Source: Candidatus Bipolaricaulota bacterium
GTDB lineage: Bacteria > Bipolaricaulota > Bipolaricaulia > UBA7950 > UBA9294
Assembly (NCBI GenBank): GCA_030611415.1
Contig: JAUWPW010000004.1
Coordinates: forward strand, 1-48,565
DNA: 48,565 bases
Reading direction: 5' to 3'
Part shown: in pieces, positions 1 to 44,570 of the stretch
Layout of the letters: each line of letters opens with the position of its first letter
Numbering within the stretch: the first letter of the stretch is position 1
Position numbers and translations under genes: made by a program
Notes under the pieces: generated by a model
What the model saw: only the letters and a program-made list of their open reading frames with translations
What the model was told of the DNA's origin: nothing
The model's database searches: none

Positions 1-2
1 TG

Positions 3-653
3 CTTGATCTATGGGTAGAGGCGTGGCGGAAGAGTCACGCCCAAGGCGAGGTATACATCGTGCGATATGCCGATGACTGGGTGATGGGGTTTGAGTACCA
101 CGGTGATGCAGAAGCGTTTCACCATGTATTGGGAAAACAGATGCAGAGCTTTGGACTTAAGCTAAACGCACAGAAGACTCGTTTACTAGAGTTTGGCCGT
201 TTTGCCATGGATAACCGAGCAAAGCGGGGCGAGGGAAAGCCGGAGACCTTTGAGTTTCTTGGGTTTACTCATATCTGTGCGCGCCGTCGCAAAGACAAGG
301 ATTTTATCGTATGGAGGAAGTCAATCGCCAAGCGACTGCGGATGAAGGTTAAACAGGTCAAAGAGGAGCTGGAGCACAGACGGCACGACCCAGTATCCCA
401 ACAGGGTAGATGGGTTTGTAGTGTCGTACGTGGGTACTTTAATTACCATGCAGTGCCGGGCAACATCTATGCCTTAGGACAGTTTCATAAGCAGGTAGGT
501 CGGGCATGGCTGCACGCTCTCCGGCGACGAAGTCAGAAAGGTCGAAGATTGACCTGGGCACGGTTGCAAAAGCTTCTAGACACATGGCTACCGCGGCCGC
601 GGATACTACACCCCTATCCTAATCAACGTCTTCGCGTTACAAACCCGAGGTAG
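3..653 (+). CDS. ltrA: Group II intron reverse transcriptase/maturase, 5'-partial, no endonuclease domain
   Basis: Frame open from position 3: LDLWVEAWRK...IVRYADDWVMGF, FEFLGF, GYFNYHAVPGN, WLPRPRILHPYP. Confidence 0.93.
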   Translation, partial: LDLWVEAWRKSHAQGEVYIVRYADDWVMGFEYHGDAEAFHHVLGKQMQSFGLKLNAQKTRLLEFGRFAMDNRAKRGEGKPETFEFLGFTHICARRRKDKDFIVWRKSIAKRLRMKVKQVKEELEHRRHDPVSQQGRWVCSVVRGYFNYHAVPGNIYALGQFHKQVGRAWLHALRRRSQKGRRLTWARLQKLLDTWLPRPRILHPYPNQRLRVTNPR

Positions 654-727
654 GAGCCGGATGAGCGTAATTCCTCACGTCCGGATCTGTGCGGGGGGCG
701 CCCAGCAATGGGTGTCCCTACCGCGAC
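654..727 (+). ncRNA. Group II intron catalytic domains V and VI
   Basis: GAGCCGGATGAGCGTAATTCCTCACGTCCGGATC (AGC triad), then GGGGGCGCCCAGCAATGGGTGTCCCTACCGCGAC with a bulged-A stem and AC terminus. Confidence 0.88.
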
Positions 728-772
728 GACACAAAGCCAGTCCAAAGTCCAACGTCCAAAGCCTGAAAGCAG

Positions 773-850
773 GTGAACACAGGAGAGGTTACAGCAATTA
801 AGAGGTTTGAAGATATCGAGGCATGGAAAGCCGCTCGAACAATCAATTAA
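773..850 (+). pseudogene. N-terminal stub of a four helix bundle (23S rRNA IVP-like) protein
   Basis: Translates VNTGEVTAIKRFEDIEAWKAARTIN*; FEDIEAW.KAR-type N-terminus, cut off where a TTAACCGCAGAG repeat begins. Confidence 0.6.
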
Positions 851-1069
851 CCGCAGAGAAGAGCAAAATGATGGGTTAGAGGCAAAGACATCTTACTCCA
901 CTACAAACAAAGACATTTAACCGCAGAGGGCGCAGGGGAAACCGGAAAAGAAAGTTATTAGTTTTCAGTTATCAGAAAAAGAAGTTATCAGCTTTCAGTC
1001 CTCAGTAATCAGTTCCTTGTCTTTCATGCATCACGGATCACCCATTACTCATCACTGTTCGTCGACATC

Positions 1070-1156
1070 TGGATGCCGGATCAAGTCCGGCATGACGGTA
1101 TGCGTCGTCATTCCGGCGGATCCCGGATCGGGGTCCAGAGCAGGGCCCGGAATCCA
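1070..1156. repeat. Pair of CGTC-type REP-like palindromes in inverted arrangement
   Basis: TGGATGCCGGATCAAGTCCGGCATGAC (1070-1096) and GTCATTCCGGCGGATCCCGGATCGGGGTCC...CCGGAATCCA (1107-1156). Confidence 0.75.
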
Positions 1157-1582
1157 ATGTGATGGTGCCTCCACGTTACCCACTACACGTCACTCTTCAC
1201 CGTTTTTCGACTCCCGACTGTCTTTTCACCCGTCACCCATTACCGTCTTTCGACGTTGGACATTGGACGTTGGACTTGTTTTCCCCCCATTTAACCAATC
1301 AACTATTTAACTTGCCTTTGCCTTTCCCGTTCTCCCACTTAACTAGTCAACTACTCAACTGGTTTTGGCTGCTGACTGCCGACTCCCGACTGGGTTTTCA
1401 CTCACCACCTACCACCTACCACTTACCACTCACCGTTTTTCGACGTTGGACTCATAGGAACTATACTCACGCATTGAGGGTTAGTAGGACGCTTGCCGTA
1501 GAGGATAGGATGGCTTTGCGGTAGACTTATGACGGATGTGGAATTGGTGAGGAGGGATTGCAGTGAGACTTAAGCTTGCATC

Positions 1583-3142
1583 ATGACAGCTTCACTTAAC
1601 ATCAGTCAGGATTTGACGCTCGGTCTGGAGGATATTATCGGGCAATGTGTTGCCATTCTTGGCATACGCGGTTCGGGAAAATCGAATACCGCGGGCGTTA
1701 TCTTTGAGGAACTCCTGAGGAACAATTATCCGCTCTCCATTATCGACATTGACGGCGAGTACTTCGGTTTGAAGGAGAATTATGAGGTTCTTGTCGTTGG
1801 ACGAGGGGAAGGGGTTGAGATAGAGGTTGATACTGATTGTGCTGAGGAGATAGCGCGGATTAGCCTGGAGAAGAATGTCCCCGTTGTGCTTGACCTAAGT
1901 ACGTTTCTTTCTGAGGAGCGCAGCCTGTTCCTGAAAGAGTATCTATCTTCTCTCTGGACGTTGGCCGGTCGTCTTCGCCGTCCCTACATTATCGGTATTG
2001 AGGAGGCGCATGAGTTTATCCCCCAAGGAGTGAGATCGGAGTTGAAAGAGTTGATCGCTCGAATTGCTCTTCGCGGTCGCAAGCGCGGACTAGGGGCAAT
2101 TATCGTTTCCCAGCGTAGCGCCAAGGTGGATAAGGATGTGCTTAGTCAGGCAGGTATGCTGTTTCTTCATCGGGTTGTACACGAAGCGGACATGCGTGTG
2201 TATGGTGAGCTTCTTCCTTGGCGAAAGAGCGAAGTAAAGGAGGTTGTTTCCGCGCTCAATACAGGCGAGTGTGTATACGTAAATGGGGATAAGGTAGTTC
2301 CTGTATATGTACGAGAAAGAGAAACCTTTCACGCTGGATTTACGCCATCCCTGCAGGTGGTGGTTACACCGGAGTTAAAGCAGGTGAGCCAATCGATTAT
2401 CGAGGCGATTGAACGGGCAAAGGATGGGCAGGGAAAGAAGTCACGGCTTGCTAGACTGCAGGAGCGCGTAGGGCAGTTGGAGGCATTGTTGACAGAGAGA
2501 GACAAGAAGATCGGCGAATTAGAGGACATAGCACGTACCCTTGGCTATATCAAGGTGGAAGCTGTAGCGCCATCTGTACAGAACGTTTCTGAAGCAATCG
2601 TTCACGCCGCAGAGGGGAATATCAAAGATCACGGAGAGGAAAGACTGTCAATCAAACCCATTGATCGCCAAGTATTGAGCGGAGCCCTTGATTCTTGGAG
2701 CGAGAAGGAGTTTGTTCAAGATGGTAGACCGATCATTGATATTGACTCACCGCCTAGTCACGATCAGCTTCCTCGGGCGGTGAGGAGACATATCAGCCGT
2801 ATCGTCTCGCGGTTAGAAAAGCGACCACTTCTCGAGAGGCGTCTTGTCGCGTTTCTTATTGGTCATACGCCTATCTCTTACTCAGTTAAGCAGATCGCTG
2901 CATGGACTGACTGCGCTGAAGCAGTAATTGTTGATAGCCCTCCCCGAGACTTGCTCGATGCAGGAATTGTCGTAACTGAACGACGATCGGATGGAATCTA
3001 CTACCGTGGCAATCTGAAGGCGTTTGTTATGCGGGAATTCGCTGTCTATCGACCGGATATTGGAGAACATGAGCTTCATCTGGTTACGCAAGCGCTTTGT
3101 GATCGTCTAGCTTCCCTGGTGGGTGAAACTGTCCGAACGTAA
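1583..3142 (+). CDS. HerA/FtsK-superfamily ATPase (DUF87-like) with coiled coil and C-terminal extension
   Basis: Walker A GIRGSGKS, IIDIDGEY, Walker B IIGIEEAHEF, RGRKRGLG and SQRS motifs; heptad segment LARLQERVGQLEALLTERDKKIGELE. Confidence 0.82.
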   Translation: MTASLNISQDLTLGLEDIIGQCVAILGIRGSGKSNTAGVIFEELLRNNYPLSIIDIDGEYFGLKENYEVLVVGRGEGVEIEVDTDCAEEIARISLEKNVPVVLDLSTFLSEERSLFLKEYLSSLWTLAGRLRRPYIIGIEEAHEFIPQGVRSELKELIARIALRGRKRGLGAIIVSQRSAKVDKDVLSQAGMLFLHRVVHEADMRVYGELLPWRKSEVKEVVSALNTGECVYVNGDKVVPVYVRERETFHAGFTPSLQVVVTPELKQVSQSIIEAIERAKDGQGKKSRLARLQERVGQLEALLTERDKKIGELEDIARTLGYIKVEAVAPSVQNVSEAIVHAAEGNIKDHGEERLSIKPIDRQVLSGALDSWSEKEFVQDGRPIIDIDSPPSHDQLPRAVRRHISRIVSRLEKRPLLERRLVAFLIGHTPISYSVKQIAAWTDCAEAVIVDSPPRDLLDAGIVVTERRSDGIYYRGNLKAFVMREFAVYRPDIGEHELHLVTQALCDRLASLVGETVRT

Positions 3143-8200: not shown

Positions 8201-10227
8201 CGGTTGAGGCGAATCAGTGGATTACACGCGAGATGGCTGAACAAATTGGCCGATTAGAAGCTGTGCTGCACCTTGGCAGGGAAGAGGATGAAGCAAGGCT
8301 TATTGGTACCAAGAGTGTCGAGGATGTTTATGATGCTGAGGAGAGACGTGTTTTGCTTCAGGCCGACGAACGCATCACGCCTCGTTTGATCGATGCTTTG
8401 CGGACCGCTAACATCTCGAAAATTAGGGTGAGACCACAAATTGTAATTCGTTCTCCGATGACCTGTGAGACAAGTAAAGGGGTCTGCCAATATTGCTACG
8501 GATACGATATGAGTAACCATCGGCCGGTAGAGCCAGGAACGGCAGTTGGAGTAATAGCTGCGCAGTCAATTGGTGAGCCGGGAACCCAGCTGACAATGCG
8601 TACCTTTCATACTGGTGGGGTTGCTGGCGCGGATATTACTCAGGGCCTCCCTCGCGCTGAAGAGCTGTTTGAGGCACGCAAGGCGTTGAAAAGTGTTCAA
8701 TCTGTGCTTTCTCCTCTTGATGGTTATATCAAATCGATTTCCTCCACCGAGAAGGGAAGCGAATTAGTGGAGATTGAGAGTGCTTGCAGAATGATACAGA
8801 TTCCTACAGTCCTTGCCTGTGCCGAACCAGGCGAGGAAGTGGACGTAAACGGAGTGATCAATGTAAAGAGTCCATGTTCCGGCGAGGTTTACATATTGGA
8901 CAACAGGGAGATGTTGATTATTGACTCTGCTTCAGGCGATCGATCCTATCCTCTTCCTCCAAATGCCCTCCCGCGGGTCAAGAATGGCGAGATCGTATCA
9001 GCTGGAAATGCTCTTACCAAGCGATTCAATATTGAAGGTGTTGTGAGTAACACAATAGGAACAGTCTCGGTTGTCAATGAGGATGAACGCGCTTTTCAAC
9101 TCGTGGCAACAAATGGGGATGTGTACAACTACAGCATTCCATACGGGGCACGCATGATGGTTGAACCGGAAGCCAAAGTAAAGGTTGGAGATCGATTAAC
9201 TTCCCGCTCAAGACCGATCTTTATTGCCGCAGAAGCGGAAGGAACAGTAGTGCTGCTTGCCGATAGAATCATCGTTTACAATCCGGACGGTAACGCAGTA
9301 CGTTTCCCTTTAACGAAGGACATCTCGCCAATAGGGAAGAGAAAGGATGGGGGCCAGGTGAAAGCAGGTTGGCCACTGGTACAACCGGAGATTCTTCATA
9401 AGGGATCTCTATTTGTAGAAAAGGTAGAGGAAAAGGGCGAGATAACCAATATCCATTTGACACCAAGAAGCGTAGTAGAGGTTGATCAATCGCTTGTGGT
9501 TCGGGTTGGTGACAAGGTAGAAGAGGGAGATCTGCTAACCAAGGGAGTTGTAGCTCCTCAAGCTCTTCTGGACACAGCGGGAGTGCAGAAGACACGAGAC
9601 TACTTGTTGACGGAGATTCACAAGGTATACAAGACGCAAGGGGTTGACATCAATGACAAACACCTTGAGATAATCATTCGTCAAACCCTTAATAATGCGC
9701 GCATATTGGATCAAGGCGATTCGCGTTTCTTGGTAAATGACCTTGTGACGCTAGAAGAATTTCAGCACGAAGTACGTAGGCTAAGTGACTTGAATCGTTT
9801 GATGGATCGCACTCGTAAGGGAGTAATTGGAGAAGAAGTAGCGGAGAGTATTATAGCTCATGGTCATTTGATTGCTGCTAAGGGTGAGCCCTTTACTGAA
9901 GAGGTCTTCCAAGCAGCGCAGCGCGCTGGAGTTACTAGGGTCTATATTCAACAAGAGGGTGAATCCATGGAAGTTCCTATTAAGGACAAAGAACTTCCCG
10001 TTGCCGAGCGTGAATTGTTGCGGATTTCTAAGGCTGCCCTACATACAAAGGGATGGCTGTCTGCGGCTTCCTTTCAGCGAACAACTAAGGTCCTTGCCGA
10101 GGCAGCGTTGCGTGGAGAGGTTGATGAGCTTTTGAGTTTGAAGCCAAGTGTTATTGTAGGGAAACGGATACCATGCGGCACTGGGTTTCCCAGGCCGCAT
10201 GAGAAAACAGCTGAATCAGAGCAATAG
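5299..10227 (+). CDS. rpoC: DNA-directed RNA polymerase beta' subunit with several insertions (1642 aa)
   Basis: ETINYRT, zinc finger [59 protein letters not shown]. Confidence 0.98.
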
Positions 10228-30014: not shown

Positions 30015-30140
30015 ATGAAAGAGGTTATTGCAACAAATGATGCCCCGCTGGCGGTCGGTCCGGCTCGCTCATGTATTCAGGTAGCAGCACTTCCTCAAGG
30101 AGCAAGAGTCGAAATAGAGGCAATTGCGTGCCTACAATAG
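30015..30140 (+). pseudogene. ridA: RidA (YjgF/UK114) remnant with in-frame internal deletion, 41 aa
   Basis: MKEVIATNDAPLAVGP joined directly to ARSCIQVAALPQGARVEIEAIACLQ*; RBS GAGGT. Confidence 0.85.
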
Positions 30141-44270: not shown

Positions 44271-44570
44271 TAGGGGCGGTTCGCGAACCGCCCATACTTC
44301 ATCTTACCGCAGAGGACGCAGGGAAAGACAGTAATAAGTGATGGGTAATGAGTGATGGGTGAAAAGCAAAGACATCTAAATGCTAAAGACAGATACATTT
44401 AACCGCAGAGGACGCAGAGGGAACCAACAATAGGGTGAAAGACAAGACCATAATACGTAGATCGTTTGTAGCGTCGAGTCTTCGCTTGCCCCGTGCAAGC
44501 CTATTGCACTGGGGCGCCCGACGTTAAAGATGTATCCACCGTCATTCCGGCACACCCCGGTTCGGGGTCT
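44271..44570. repeat. Second repeat/REP mosaic downstream of the tRNA
   Basis: GGGCGGTTCGCGAACCGCCC palindrome (44274-44293), ACCGCAGAGGACGCAG x2, GTGATGG-type heptamers (44331-44362), CGTC-type REP half (44540-44569). Confidence 0.75.

Follow-up and report, generated by a model that had tools for sequence, protein, structure and literature searches.

The BIMEs of enterobacteria are mosaics of short palindromic units and linkers, and the STRR words of cyanobacteria differ, as does the taxon that carries them, from the words described here. Elhai et al. 2008 (Genome Res 18:1484) reportedly found in Nostoc that small dispersed repeats lie nested inside tandem heptamer repeats, a study not known to draw a link to PF05635. 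Two old features of bacterial genomes that lack an explanation are heptamer repeats in dispersed form and the family called "23S rRNA intervening-sequence protein". In Coxiella burnetii, an intervening sequence (IVS) in helix 45 of the 23S rRNA carries an S23p ORF, and the article on it, which also cites an IVS of Leptospira (Ralph and McClelland 1993), remarks on heptameric repeats in that one element (PMC4990558). Our literature search found no paper linking heptamer arms in general to PF05635 genes.

The locus described here lies near the start of the window, by which we mean the whole stretch analyzed, 48,565 nt of contig JAUWPW010000004.1 from Candidatus Bipolaricaulota bacterium (GCA_030611415.1; G000 below). 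Positions 731-1452 are probably a repeat mosaic framed by a decayed PF05635 cassette, with no sign of a host function, occupying a genus-specific hot spot upstream of a gene for a HerA-like ATPase. The outer frame of the mosaic would consist of an (AGTCCAA)n left arm, a leader with 14 codons, and (TTGGACG)n right arms. In place of the lost part of the gene, and beyond the first right arm, would lie orphan 7/8-mer arrays (at least six other words, each with a T-rich linker) and a GC-rich multi-hairpin element, and a group II intron appears to have inserted at an A-rich linker at the left edge. The features, all on the forward strand, are as follows.

1-727, forward strand: 3' part of a group II intron, with the end of its reverse transcriptase ORF (3-653) and domains V/VI (652-727); the first base of the contig already lies within the intron (Pfam, Rfam).
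728-769, forward strand: A-rich linker GACACAAAGCC, then the left arm (AGTCCAA)n (Tandem Repeats Finder, 739-761), complementary to 1263-1277 and 1240-1268.
770-838, forward strand: probable remnant of a gene of the PF05635 family (23S rRNA IVS protein, a four-helix bundle), leader plus 14 codons (DNA identity to an intact gene, alignment of copies).
839-945, forward strand: purine-rich modules, namely two TTAACCGCAGAG motifs (844-858, 914-928), a CGCAGAG-type array, TGATGGGT, and AAAG-led spacers (direct repeats).
946-1048, forward strand: polarity switch zone, with AGTTATC/CAGTTNT arrays and then the first TCACCCA-type array (Tandem Repeats Finder, 953-975; skew change).
1049-1166, forward strand: GC-rich multi-hairpin dispersed repeat, REP/BIME-like (nhmmer).
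1167-1248, forward strand: three pyrimidine-rich modules (a degenerate CACGTCA/TCACC array, CGACTCC, and TCACCCG/TCACCCA), each closed by a T-rich linker (segment listing; junctions at 1199, 1217, and 1242).
1249-1283, forward strand: (TTGGACG)n right arm matching the left arm at 739-769, then TTGTTTT (Tandem Repeats Finder, inverted repeat).
1284-1439, forward strand: pyrimidine-rich modules (two TCAACTA(N) octamer arrays, CTGCCGA/CGACTCC, and ACCACCT), each closed by G..TTTT (Tandem Repeats Finder, junction and segment listing).
1440-1452, forward strand: last TTGGAC half-module, the border of the mosaic (collinearity with sister species from 1442-1448).
1453-1582, forward strand: single-copy conserved leader of the HerA-like ATPase gene, outside the mosaic (about 90% identity to G001 and G002, equal to that of coding DNA).

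About a dozen short 7/8-mer tandem arrays lie in 731-1452, purine rich on the left and pyrimidine rich on the right, much as the original prediction had described them. Those located by Tandem Repeats Finder include AGTCCAA (3.3 copies, 739-761), AGTTATC (3.3 copies, 953-975), GACGTTG (3.4 copies, 1252-1275), ACTCAACT (3.0 copies, 1337-1360), CTGCCGA (3.4 copies, 1369-1392), and CACTTAC/ACCACCT (5.1 copies, 1399-1434). The prediction's run of 7/8-mer modules over 1024-1452 holds overall but is interrupted at 1049-1166, where the multi-hairpin repeat stands instead; the sequence it found repeated at 1197 and 1430 is TCACCGTTTTTCGAC. Its reversal of module orientation left of about 1015 is also present as a change of polarity, though spread over a zone at ~945-1015 rather than sharp at 1015, and AT skew runs at +0.26 to +0.29 until ~1050 and at -0.22 to -0.25 thereafter. 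Array-anchored junction transitions went from A to T three times and from T to A not once, numbers too small to count. By eye, mirroring between the two sides of the mosaic is no more than partial, and a nested order is absent.

The downstream gene (1583-3142) matches Pfam DUF87, and ORFs crossing the repeats (1017-1307, 1159-1521, and 661-798) have no Pfam match at E ≤ 0.1. Three public runs from two studies, one of the runs possibly being the source sample, yielded exact unitigs that overlap to tile 698-1069 and 1089-2000; among the unitigs listed, none spans 1070-1088, inside the high-copy hairpin repeat. Metagenome (Logan) contigs also contain joints such as 1444 to 1208 and 1319 to 1379, other combinations of the same modules that are indistinguishable from paralogous loci. 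The left border of the mosaic is hidden, lost to view behind the intron and the end of the contig.

The evidence for a cassette begins with the arms. Two mutually reverse-complementary arms flank the gene remnant, and the perfect 14-bp inverted repeat predicted at 746-759/1263-1276 is in fact 15 of 15 nt (745-759/1263-1277), extending to 29 nt at 83% (740-768/1240-1268). Both arms are tandem arrays with units of about 7 nt (AGTCCAA, 3.3 copies, and GACGTTG, 3.4 copies), and (TTGGACG)n right arms stand 0.5 to 0.7 kb downstream of the left arm and remnant. The remnant itself (797-838) comprises the 14 codons IKRFEDIEAWKAAR, has lost its start codon, and is cut at 838; too short for an HMM match, it is 97.6% identical over 42 nt to C26:107615-107574, the 5' end of an intact PF05635 gene, which the same left arm also precedes. 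When the remnant was aligned with four other copies, the truncation points proved independent, and three other loci keep this left arm with the gene cut at differing points. Metagenome contigs run past 838 with the next bases of the intact gene. In the predicted minimum-free-energy RNA fold of 728-1290, the left and right arms pair (z of -2.4, a value also obtained for an intact cassette).

Across the genome, PF05635 has seven matches, four of them intact genes and three fragments. Inverted arrays flank all four intact genes and one broken gene, three of the intact genes and the broken one having been identified by a search for Tandem Repeats Finder pairs and the fourth intact gene, which has 9-mer arms, read from the sequence. 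Only two of the roughly eight words in the mosaic have a living cassette in this genome: TTGGACG, and ACCACYT, the right-arm word of the intact cassette at C22:1021-1549. The remaining words were sought as PF05635 arms in relatives, a weak test in which 1 of 8 was found exactly and 7 of 8 with one mismatch, compared with 4.6 for shuffled words (17 of 300 trials were as good). A survey across many phyla gave 75 usable PF05635 loci from 80. Tandem arrays lay on both sides of the gene at 55 loci, on one side at 19, and on neither at 1, and arrays were present in 129 of 150 gene-proximal pieces compared with 9 of 134 distal control pieces. Among the 55 two-sided loci, the period was a multiple of 7 on both sides in 40, and the flanking units were reverse complementary in 47.

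One alternative is that the arrays are primary, arising and spreading in the manner of STRR through slippage during replication and through recombination, with no mobile element involved, and that PF05635 genes merely settle inside them. The abundance of arrays speaks for this and counts against our framed-cassette reading: 208 of the 228 counted (7-, 8-, and 9-mers, the last possibly including some coding repeats) are separated by over 200 nt from the nearest PF05635 hit or remnant. Heptamer arrays without known origin also occur in cyanobacteria, Beggiatoaceae, and Bacteroidetes (PMC4679880). Array copy number also differs between species in steps of 7 or 9 nt, and several loci carry composite blocks in which a number of arrays follow one another in the same order. 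Slippage alone, however, gives no such pattern as the reverse-complementary flanks of the survey, nor does it sit easily with the truncated gene remnants found behind orphan left arms at four loci, the joint loss of arms and gene at C26:57k (see below), or the hairpin-like order of the mosaics. In that last respect, 29 large clusters comprised 14 of pyrimidine-rich arrays only, 8 of purine-rich arrays only, 7 running from purine to pyrimidine, and none in the reverse order. Taken together, we consider purely primary arrays unlikely.

This mosaic counts among about 30 in a 1.33-Mb genome. The commonest tandem-repeat period is 7 (164 of 577 Tandem Repeats Finder rows, to which periods 14 and 21 add 50 and 15), and 126 clusters of 7/8-mers share the same words. 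Modules recur throughout the genome, as had been predicted, and nearly every stretch of 731-1452 is copied elsewhere (262 blastn rows, including self). Copies of the 839-945 modules were found on C61 and C44, at C26:59k, and at 44353-44423 of the window, and by eye, their composite also lies inside a new G002 insert; the 946-1048 zone has copies on C38, C17, C3, C70, and C58, and the 1167-1248 modules likewise have copies elsewhere. The hairpin repeat at 1049-1166 gave 80 nhmmer hits in the genome, 14 of them near full length, with nothing in Rfam at E ≤ 1, and a copy is present in the orthologous G001 mosaic. Arrays or hairpin repeats make up about 1% of the assembly, but 35 of 156 contig ends have one within 300 nt, so that repeats explain part of its contig breaks.

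Comparison with two sister species, G001 and G002, which are 95 to 96% identical to each other and each about 90% identical to G000, shows how quickly such loci change. Collinearity of both with the window starts only at 1442-1448; to the left of it, what they have in common is limited to patches whose order differs. As the original prediction had anticipated, the orthologous mosaic differs by whole modules between flanks that are about 90% identical, and these differences are internal replacements, not additions at one end. In eight of eight other genera, a short spacer without 7/8-mer arrays lies upstream of HerA. A second mosaic (C26:59167-59748) measures about 580 nt in G000; its G002 counterpart has about 200 nt and is made of other modules.

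These comparisons also bear on whether the mosaic is a functional leader of the HerA-like gene, with the heptamer arrays as putative sites for an RNA- or DNA-binding regulator. The arrays do lie upstream of that gene in the same orientation, and for TAACTGA arrays upstream of start codons a role in regulating translation was proposed by MacGregor 2015 (PMC4679880); the complementary word, TCAGTTA, forms arrays in this genome. Yet the mosaic stops 130 nt before the start codon, conservation is confined to the single-copy leader at 1453-1582, module content differs in each of the three sister species, and all eight other genera that retain the gene lack the mosaic. Nor is there an excess of local terminator-like hairpins (1 found, 1.1 expected), and a regulatory leader is in our judgment very improbable.

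Both loss and gain could be seen among the sisters. G000 and G001 each carry a 505-bp cassette (C26:57187-57691 in G000), with a 45-nt (5 x 9) difference in its left arm, and G002 lacks it but retains one repeat unit; since G001 and G002 are closer to each other than to G000, the absence is most simply a loss. Conversely, four mosaic-filled inserts, each about 0.5 to 1 kb with target duplications of roughly 8 bp, occur only in G002 and are most simply gains. Their targets are A/T rich; one duplication is TTTTTTCT, and the other three are not T-runs. A full-length donor for the 588-nt insert was absent from the three assemblies, where matching pieces reached about 170 nt. When the inserts were tested for end-to-end inverted repeats, site B stood out (13 of 300 shuffles as good), and site 1 (118 of 300) and site A (300 of 300) were unremarkable. 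A 9-nt core of the insert ends is not enriched in G000 (81 matches, 90 in the control), whereas a 16-nt end has 8, 5, and 22 matches in G000, G001, and G002, compared with 1, 0, and 0 in controls. At a separate locus, C76, G000 is 2.3 to 2.9 kb longer than its sisters, in an arrangement too complex to read as a clean insertion.

A further possibility, put forward in the original prediction, is that the motif shared by the module junctions is the recombination site of an undescribed cassette system, in which integron-like serial addition and excision leave a polarized stack of scars. All seven junction positions named there were recovered. The motif AC(C/T)G N0-2 TTT occurs six times in 1024-1452 and never on the opposite strand, compared with a mean of 0.46 in dinucleotide shuffles, none of 1,000 of which reach six, and its density is 14 per kb compared with 0.34 per kb per strand genome-wide, figures that overstate significance somewhat because the motif was defined after the sequence had been seen. 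TTTT alone is not enriched in the same segment (8 versus 5.7; 231 of 1,000 shuffles reach it). Genome-wide, 32 of 158 arrays end in the junction motif on one strand, compared with 1.1% of random positions. By eye, comparison of G000 with G002 gives two clear breakpoints placed exactly behind a linker, after GCCTTTG and CCGT(C/T)TTT. The A/T-rich duplicated targets in G002 point the same way, since the TTTTTTCT duplication would create T-runs on both sides, as does the group II intron, which sits at an A-rich linker in all four assembled 3' junctions.

Against this, linkers and arrays are the only sequence that the modules have in common, so homologous recombination predicts the same breakpoints, and exchange between dispersed repeats accounts for the module boundaries just as well as a dedicated site would. 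Species differ by internal replacements, each G002 insert is a composite of 0.5 to 1 kb rather than a single module of 20 to 40 nt, and three of the four target duplications are not T-runs. Nor is the junction a general cassette feature in other phyla, where TTT follows the right arm at 10 of 49 loci and AAA at 12 of 49. The genome has a single tyrosine recombinase (Phage_integrase family), on contig C52 rather than on this contig. Of the small genes that the modules had been expected to bracket, intact PF05635 genes do lie between inverted arrays of the same words, but PF13366 (GxxExxY) was not found, and Y1/RAYT genes are not flanked: near the three Y1_Tnp matches, no GC-hairpin copy lies within 1.5 kb, and only short unrelated arrays are close to two. 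We consider it unlikely that the junction is a dedicated recombination site. The proposal of cassette scars is thus partly supported, in that some modules are the arms of small cassettes and sister species differ by cassette loss and insert gain, but not in its assignment of AC(C/T)G..TTT as the site of recombination.

At the left edge, the end of the intron's reverse transcriptase ORF matches Pfam RVT_1 (E of 7e-8), and Rfam Intron_gpII scores 37.8 bits at 652-727, just below the gathering score of 40. The genome has a second copy, 95% identical, at C26:107739-108467, and the homology of five copies stops at ...CCGCGAC, which is position 727 of the window. The reverse transcriptases in the genome are of group II intron types only (two copies and one broken), with none of the DGR type beside four-helix-bundle genes.

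We observed in this small group of genomes the anatomy of a mosaic, the recurrence of every piece of it, its purine-to-pyrimidine polarity, reshuffling between sisters, and the loss of a cassette and gain of inserts in G002. In the decayed-cassette model that these data support, array copy number would change by slippage, and modules would move from one locus to another through recombination or template switching where arrays and linkers are shared. Many of the orphan arrays may be leftovers of cassettes, or of other hairpin-armed elements, that lost their center. By analogy with ORF-bearing 23S rRNA intervening sequences, the arms may act as an RNA (or single-strand DNA) hairpin.

A broader proposal, which we offer tentatively as possible but doubtful, is that heptamer mosaics are the wreckage and landing pads of undescribed hairpin-armed mobile cassettes, including both PF05635 genes and gene-less shells. 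Such elements would enter at A/T-rich linkers or hairpin centers, duplicating a few bases, and their centers would later be deleted while arms and T-run scars accumulate in purine-to-pyrimidine order. If this is true, the excess of dispersed bacterial heptamer repeats, STRR and the like, would be the fossil record of hairpin-armed cassettes, and the shared junction would be an insertion scar. One small genome and its sisters hold intact cassettes, truncated genes, a precise loss with one unit left, stacked orphan arms, and fresh inserts as stages of turnover, making this lineage a practical place to work out how such elements move and decay.

Several described systems share parts of this architecture. 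A CRISPR array has been rejected, in agreement with the original prediction: the locus has no constant repeat of 24 to 48 nt but 7/8-mer tandems of different words, its "spacers" recur elsewhere in the genome, and CRISPR-like growth at one end is contradicted because differences between G000 and G002 lie between shared modules. An integron cassette array does not fit either, the only Phage_integrase match being on C52 and the ORFs in the modules having no Pfam match. Like MITEs, three of the four new G002 inserts have GGTTCCTCRCRGTYAA-type ends, all four have direct target repeats of about 8 bp, and a bare 197-nt copy of this MITE-like family stands at C5:43771-43968 in G000. Unlike MITEs, the inserts have unique mosaic interiors, the end-to-end inverted-repeat test stood out for one insert only, and the mosaic itself lacks such an end: its 9-nt core is unmatched in 1-3000 and the 16-nt end is unmatched on contig C19, the left border being hidden. 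BIMEs and the REP/REPIN clusters (PMC3116915) of enterobacteria and pseudomonads are likewise intergenic mosaics with a small vocabulary of short palindromic units and fixed linkers, hypervariable between relatives and targeted by other mobile elements. The building blocks of the present mosaic are 7/8-mer tandem arrays and not single palindromes, and a REP/REPIN system with RAYT was rejected, as none of the three Y1_Tnp matches is a repeat-flanked Y1 gene.

Nesting of very small repeated elements within tandem heptamers is a likeness to the small dispersed repeats said to occur in Nostoc. This genome also fits the description of STRR heptamers in heterocystous cyanobacteria, and of TAACTGA arrays (PMC4679880), as tandem heptamers that are dispersed, mostly intergenic, present in many copies per genome, and unexplained in origin and function; the complement of TAACTGA is even one of its words. 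We regard this as likeness rather than membership. The phylum is another one, many words run head to tail through T-rich linkers with a fixed polarity, and some are tied to an armed gene cassette.

That cassette resembles the ORF-bearing 23S rRNA IVS, in which a small PF05635 gene likewise occupies the loop of a long stem built from the element's complementary ends. The locus is not itself a 23S rRNA IVS, an element seated in a 23S rRNA helix and excised by RNase III: it is intergenic, between a group II intron and the HerA-like gene, and 1-3000 has no rRNA match in Rfam. It differs further in that its element lies between protein-coding genes, its arms are whole 7-mer arrays, only 14 codons are left of its gene, and stacks of further orphan arrays and other repeats surround it. 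The design of a gene held in heptamer arms is confirmed on 75 loci from many phyla.

The pattern of modules and junctions at window 731-1452 is real and non-random, and the mosaic that carries it, though instructive, is an ordinary case of a repeat system found throughout the genome. In the assembly (1.33 Mb, 78 contigs, 93% complete) the window is one entire contig, and the mosaic lies within the 855 nt separating a group II intron from a HerA-like gene.

Features around and within the mosaic (window coordinates)
1-727: group II intron, 3' part, with reverse transcriptase (RT) ORF and domains V/VI
653: end of the RT ORF (Pfam RVT_1)
652-727: intron domains V/VI (Rfam Intron_gpII, 37.8 bits, gathering score 40)
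1249-1283 and 1440-1452: TTGGACG arrays matching the left arm of a cassette remnant
1583-3142: HerA-like ATPase gene (DUF87), the next gene after the intron

Tandem Repeats Finder places six distinct 7/8-mer arrays across window 739-1434, and the direct repeats named in the original prediction were recovered. Its heptamer and octamer modules are likewise real, except that 1049-1166 holds no heptamer module but a GC-rich multi-hairpin repeat with 80 nhmmer matches genome-wide, including 14 of nearly full length. The inverted repeat is present, one base longer than first described and with an imperfect extension to 29 nt, and the reported reversal of polarity exists as a zone at about 945-1015 rather than as a single point. 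Overlapping exact unitigs from three public runs in two studies, one of which may be the source sample, cover window 698-1069 and 1089-2000; 1070-1088, a stretch of the high-copy hairpin repeat, is crossed by none of the pieces listed. A sigma-70-like promoter match at window 1440-1467 (TCGACG, 16 nt, TATACT), whose -35 hexamer falls within the final TTGGAC module, has a -10 region that, by eye, is not conserved in either of two sister species, G001 and G002.

Seven is the commonest tandem-repeat period in this genome (164 of 577 rows, with 50 more at period 14 and 15 more at period 21); period 9 accounts for 126 rows, probably including coding repeats. The 7/8-mers form 126 clusters built from a limited vocabulary (AGTCCAA/GTCCAAC, TCACCCA/GTGATGG, CGACTCC/AGTCGGG, CTGATAG/CAGCTAT, CAGTTAT, CCATTCAA, CCTTAAT and others), multi-array blocks are repeated in identical order at several loci, and nearly all pieces of window 731-1452 have copies elsewhere, a recurrence the original prediction had proposed to check. 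With gaps bridged, arrays and hairpin repeats make up 211 regions (33 of at least 200 nt) and 1.5% of the assembly, and 35 of 156 contig ends lie no more than 300 nt from one. A second small patch of the vocabulary on the window's own contig, at 44353-44423 and 44532-44570, has an 81% match to window 869-940 and includes a partial copy of the GC hairpin. TTGGAC pattern matches number 46 in the genome under study, 12 in G001 and 138 in G002, with none in controls; TTGGAC arrays are found mainly in this genus and a few others. Among 29 large clusters, 14 are wholly pyrimidine-rich, 8 wholly purine-rich and 7 switch from purine to pyrimidine, with no reverse switch; the halves of the window mosaic were scored as two clusters and together add one further purine-to-pyrimidine case. 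This order survives reverse complementation and matches that of a hairpin whose 5' side is A-rich and whose 3' side is T-rich. Polarity judged by junction motifs gave 3 to 0, too few to weigh.

Modules were also expected to bracket small genes, and for one family they do. The genome contains four intact genes and three fragments of PF05635 (23S_rRNA_IVP, a four-helix bundle), seven matches in all, and every intact gene lies between two mutually reverse-complementary arrays, with a separate word for each cassette.

Arms of PF05635 cassettes
C26:107k: AGTCCAA / TTGGACG
C22: GGTAAGT / ACCACYT
C74: GTTCTAC / GTAGAAC
C26:57k: 9-mers, GAGTTCATT / ATGAACCCT

Two other families proposed for this role fell away: none of the three Y1_Tnp (RAYT) matches is flanked by mosaic repeats, and PF13366 (GxxExxY) has no match in the genome. 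GIY-YIG is represented by one UvrC-sized protein and one weak fragment. At C17:629-1527, GTTCTAG/AACATAG arms enclose a PF05635 gene broken into 780-914 (N-terminal) and 1286-1465 (C-terminal), with a GIY-YIG-like fragment (1076-1195; 21.9 bits, below cut-off) between the pieces, as if one selfish gene had landed in another.

A PF05635 gene between inverted heptamer arms is a general design. Searching with an alignment of the four proteins from this genome returned 80 loci from many phyla, 75 of them with sufficient flank. Tandem arrays stood on both sides at 55 of the 75 (with a period that is a multiple of 7 on both sides at 40 of these), on one side at 19 and on neither at 1. Units were reverse-complementary at 47 loci, and arrays occurred in 129 of 150 gene-proximal pieces versus 9 of 134 distal pieces from those loci.

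The window mosaic itself is probably a decayed IVS-like cassette of this kind, on top of which lie orphan arms, a hairpin repeat and an intron. Its left arm, an AGTCCAA array at 739-769, is followed by a leader and 14 codons (IKRFEDIEAWKAAR, 797-838) that are 97.6% identical over 42 nt to the gene of C26:107k type; the start codon is gone and the gene ends at 838. Three other loci carry the same arm with the gene cut at different points, so decay occurred repeatedly. When window 728-1290 is folded as RNA, the arms pair (z -2.4), as do those of an intact cassette. The ACCACCT module at 1399-1439 is the right-arm word of the living C22 cassette, and six of the eight window words have no living cassette in this genome. 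Comparing the window words with PF05635 arms at 40 loci in relatives was a weak test; PF05635 genes are present in 27 of 40 related genomes. Throughout the genome, 208 of 228 arrays of 7-, 8- or 9-mers are orphans, with no PF05635 match or remnant within 200 nt; most of them may be what lost cassettes left behind, components of gene-less shells, or simple repeats that propagate themselves.

The modules had been explained as cassette scars left at a common recombination motif, AC(C/T)..TTT. Window 1024-1452 contains six copies of the form AC[CT]G N0-2 TTT on its + strand and none on the other; dinucleotide shuffles predict 0.46 and reached 6 in 0 of 1,000, a generous figure, because the motif was picked after the sequence had been viewed. 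T-runs alone are not enriched in the region (8 versus 5.7 expected). Genome-wide, the junction on one strand terminates 32 of 158 arrays compared with 1.1% of random positions, so the T-rich linker is a trait of the repeat family in this genome and not of the locus. It lies outside the general PF05635 design, in which the right arm is followed by TTT at 10 of 49 loci and by AAA at 12. The idea of cassette scars is partly right; a single shared recombination motif is unproven, and the data can be explained without one.

Relatives place the mosaic in time. The HerA-like gene was found in 35 of 40 related genomes, and in eight further genera of the family a co-directional gene precedes it, separated by a spacer of about 100-200 nt without 7/8-mer arrays, so the mosaic is new in this genus. 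G001 and G002, 95-96% identical to each other and each about 90% identical to the genome under study (two loci), align collinearly with the window, free of large gaps, from 1442-1448 as far as 21,399 at least. Upstream of 1442, all three species carry mosaics of common vocabulary with differing modules and order. The genome under study and G002 have in common a TCACCCA-TTGGACG-TCAACTA block and the final TTGGAC module; the three modules in between differ from one genome to the other, with breakpoints (by eye) directly behind the linkers GCCTTTG and CCGT(C/T)TTT. With G001, the genome under study has in common the GC-rich hairpin plus neighbouring modules. Another mosaic with an orthologue in G002, C26:59167-59748, measures about 580 nt here but about 200 nt there, where its modules are different. 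Variation between species is therefore module-wise, as predicted. The site is a hot spot that turns over from species to species. Recombination between dispersed copies also predicts such variation, since the modules share only arrays and linkers. At C76:7546-10460, a variable, repeat-bordered island, the genome under study has 2.3-2.9 kb with two or three ORFs and a mosaic (9748-10033), compared with 84 nt in G001 and 173 nt in G002. A RidA-like gene at window ~30,015-30,140 has a 249-nt in-frame internal deletion relative to G001:C9 and G002:C105.

Longer pieces are also lost and gained. The cassette at C26:57187-57691 (505 bp, gene plus both 9-mer arms) is present in the genome under study and G001, with a 45-nt (5 x 9) difference in the left arm, and G002 retains one unit (AATGAACTCT); given the distances among the three, loss in G002 is the simplest reading. 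Four inserts occur in G002 only, at sites empty in the other two.

Inserts in G002 (coordinates of the genome under study)
C71:~47,100: complete, 588 nt; target direct repeat TTTTTTCT (10 nt counting CC)
Window ~34,480: 961 nt, joined from two overlapping contig ends; AAAGCACT / AGAGCACT either side
Window ~38,120: 305 + 453 nt, unjoined; ACAATAAT both sides; the insert includes a PF05635 gene's 3' end, on the opposite strand (by eye)
C71:~43,615: ~0.5 kb; GATTGTTA / TGTTGTTA (6 of 8); the weakest case

All four are gene-less mosaics of the shared vocabulary, and part of the first resembles window 844-945. Three have a GGTTCCTCRCRGTYAA-type end at one side and a related GGYYCCTCA end at the other; this 16-nt end motif has 22, 8 and 5 matches in G002, the genome under study and G001, versus 0, 1 and 0 for a reversed control. 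A bare 197-nt element with both ends (C5:43771-43968) is palindromic, with inner arms of CGCAAAG/CTCTGCG type. We read the inserts as a MITE-like shell family, ending in GGTTCCTCRCRGTYAA-type motifs and duplicating about 8 bp of target, whose G002 copies carry, or are filled with, 0.5-1 kb of heptamer mosaic. A search of three assemblies for a full-length donor of the 588-nt insert found none, and in a formal end-to-end test one insert alone stood out. The inserts show that mosaics can reach a new site; they do not show the origin of the window mosaic, from which the GGTTCCTCRCRGTYAA-type end is absent.

The intron beside the mosaic is part of a wider pattern. Its two copies in this genome (window 1-727 and C26:107739-109245) are 95% identical, and both are followed by an A-rich linker and then a purine-type array, the 3' exon reading GACACAAAGCC-AGTCCAA in the window and GAAAAAGC-AGGATTA at C26. 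GTGATGA-type arrays follow the intron in G002 (C15) and in a further related genome (G005:C241), and the 5' exon of the G002 copy likewise has a GTGATGA-type array at its end. All four 3' junctions that are assembled thus place the intron inside a mosaic, in the orientation of the cassette genes, with an A- or purine-rich linker and then a purine-type array opening the 3' exon. This implies at least occasional transcription of mosaic regions, and such linkers may be homing targets of the intron. RTs in this genome are of the group II intron type only. A broken one at C51:1887-3251 lies in three pieces between two copies of an IS-like gene.

No general link between heptamer arms and PF05635 appeared in the literature searched, a scope outside which lie some 1.7 million PubMed Central articles and the subscription journals. 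MacGregor (2015) described TAACTGA arrays in Beggiatoaceae, Cyanobacteria and Bacteroidetes, and a term search of that paper gave no mention of IVS proteins (PMC4679880). Zhang and co-workers noted 23S_rRNA_IVP genes lodged between cas genes (PMC3936711). The intervening element of Coxiella 23S rRNA helix 45 is described as a 428-nt IVS whose 28-bp terminal stem is cleaved by RNase III; it carries a decaying S23p ORF and, upstream of that ORF, tandem heptameric repeats whose number varies among strains (PMC4990558).
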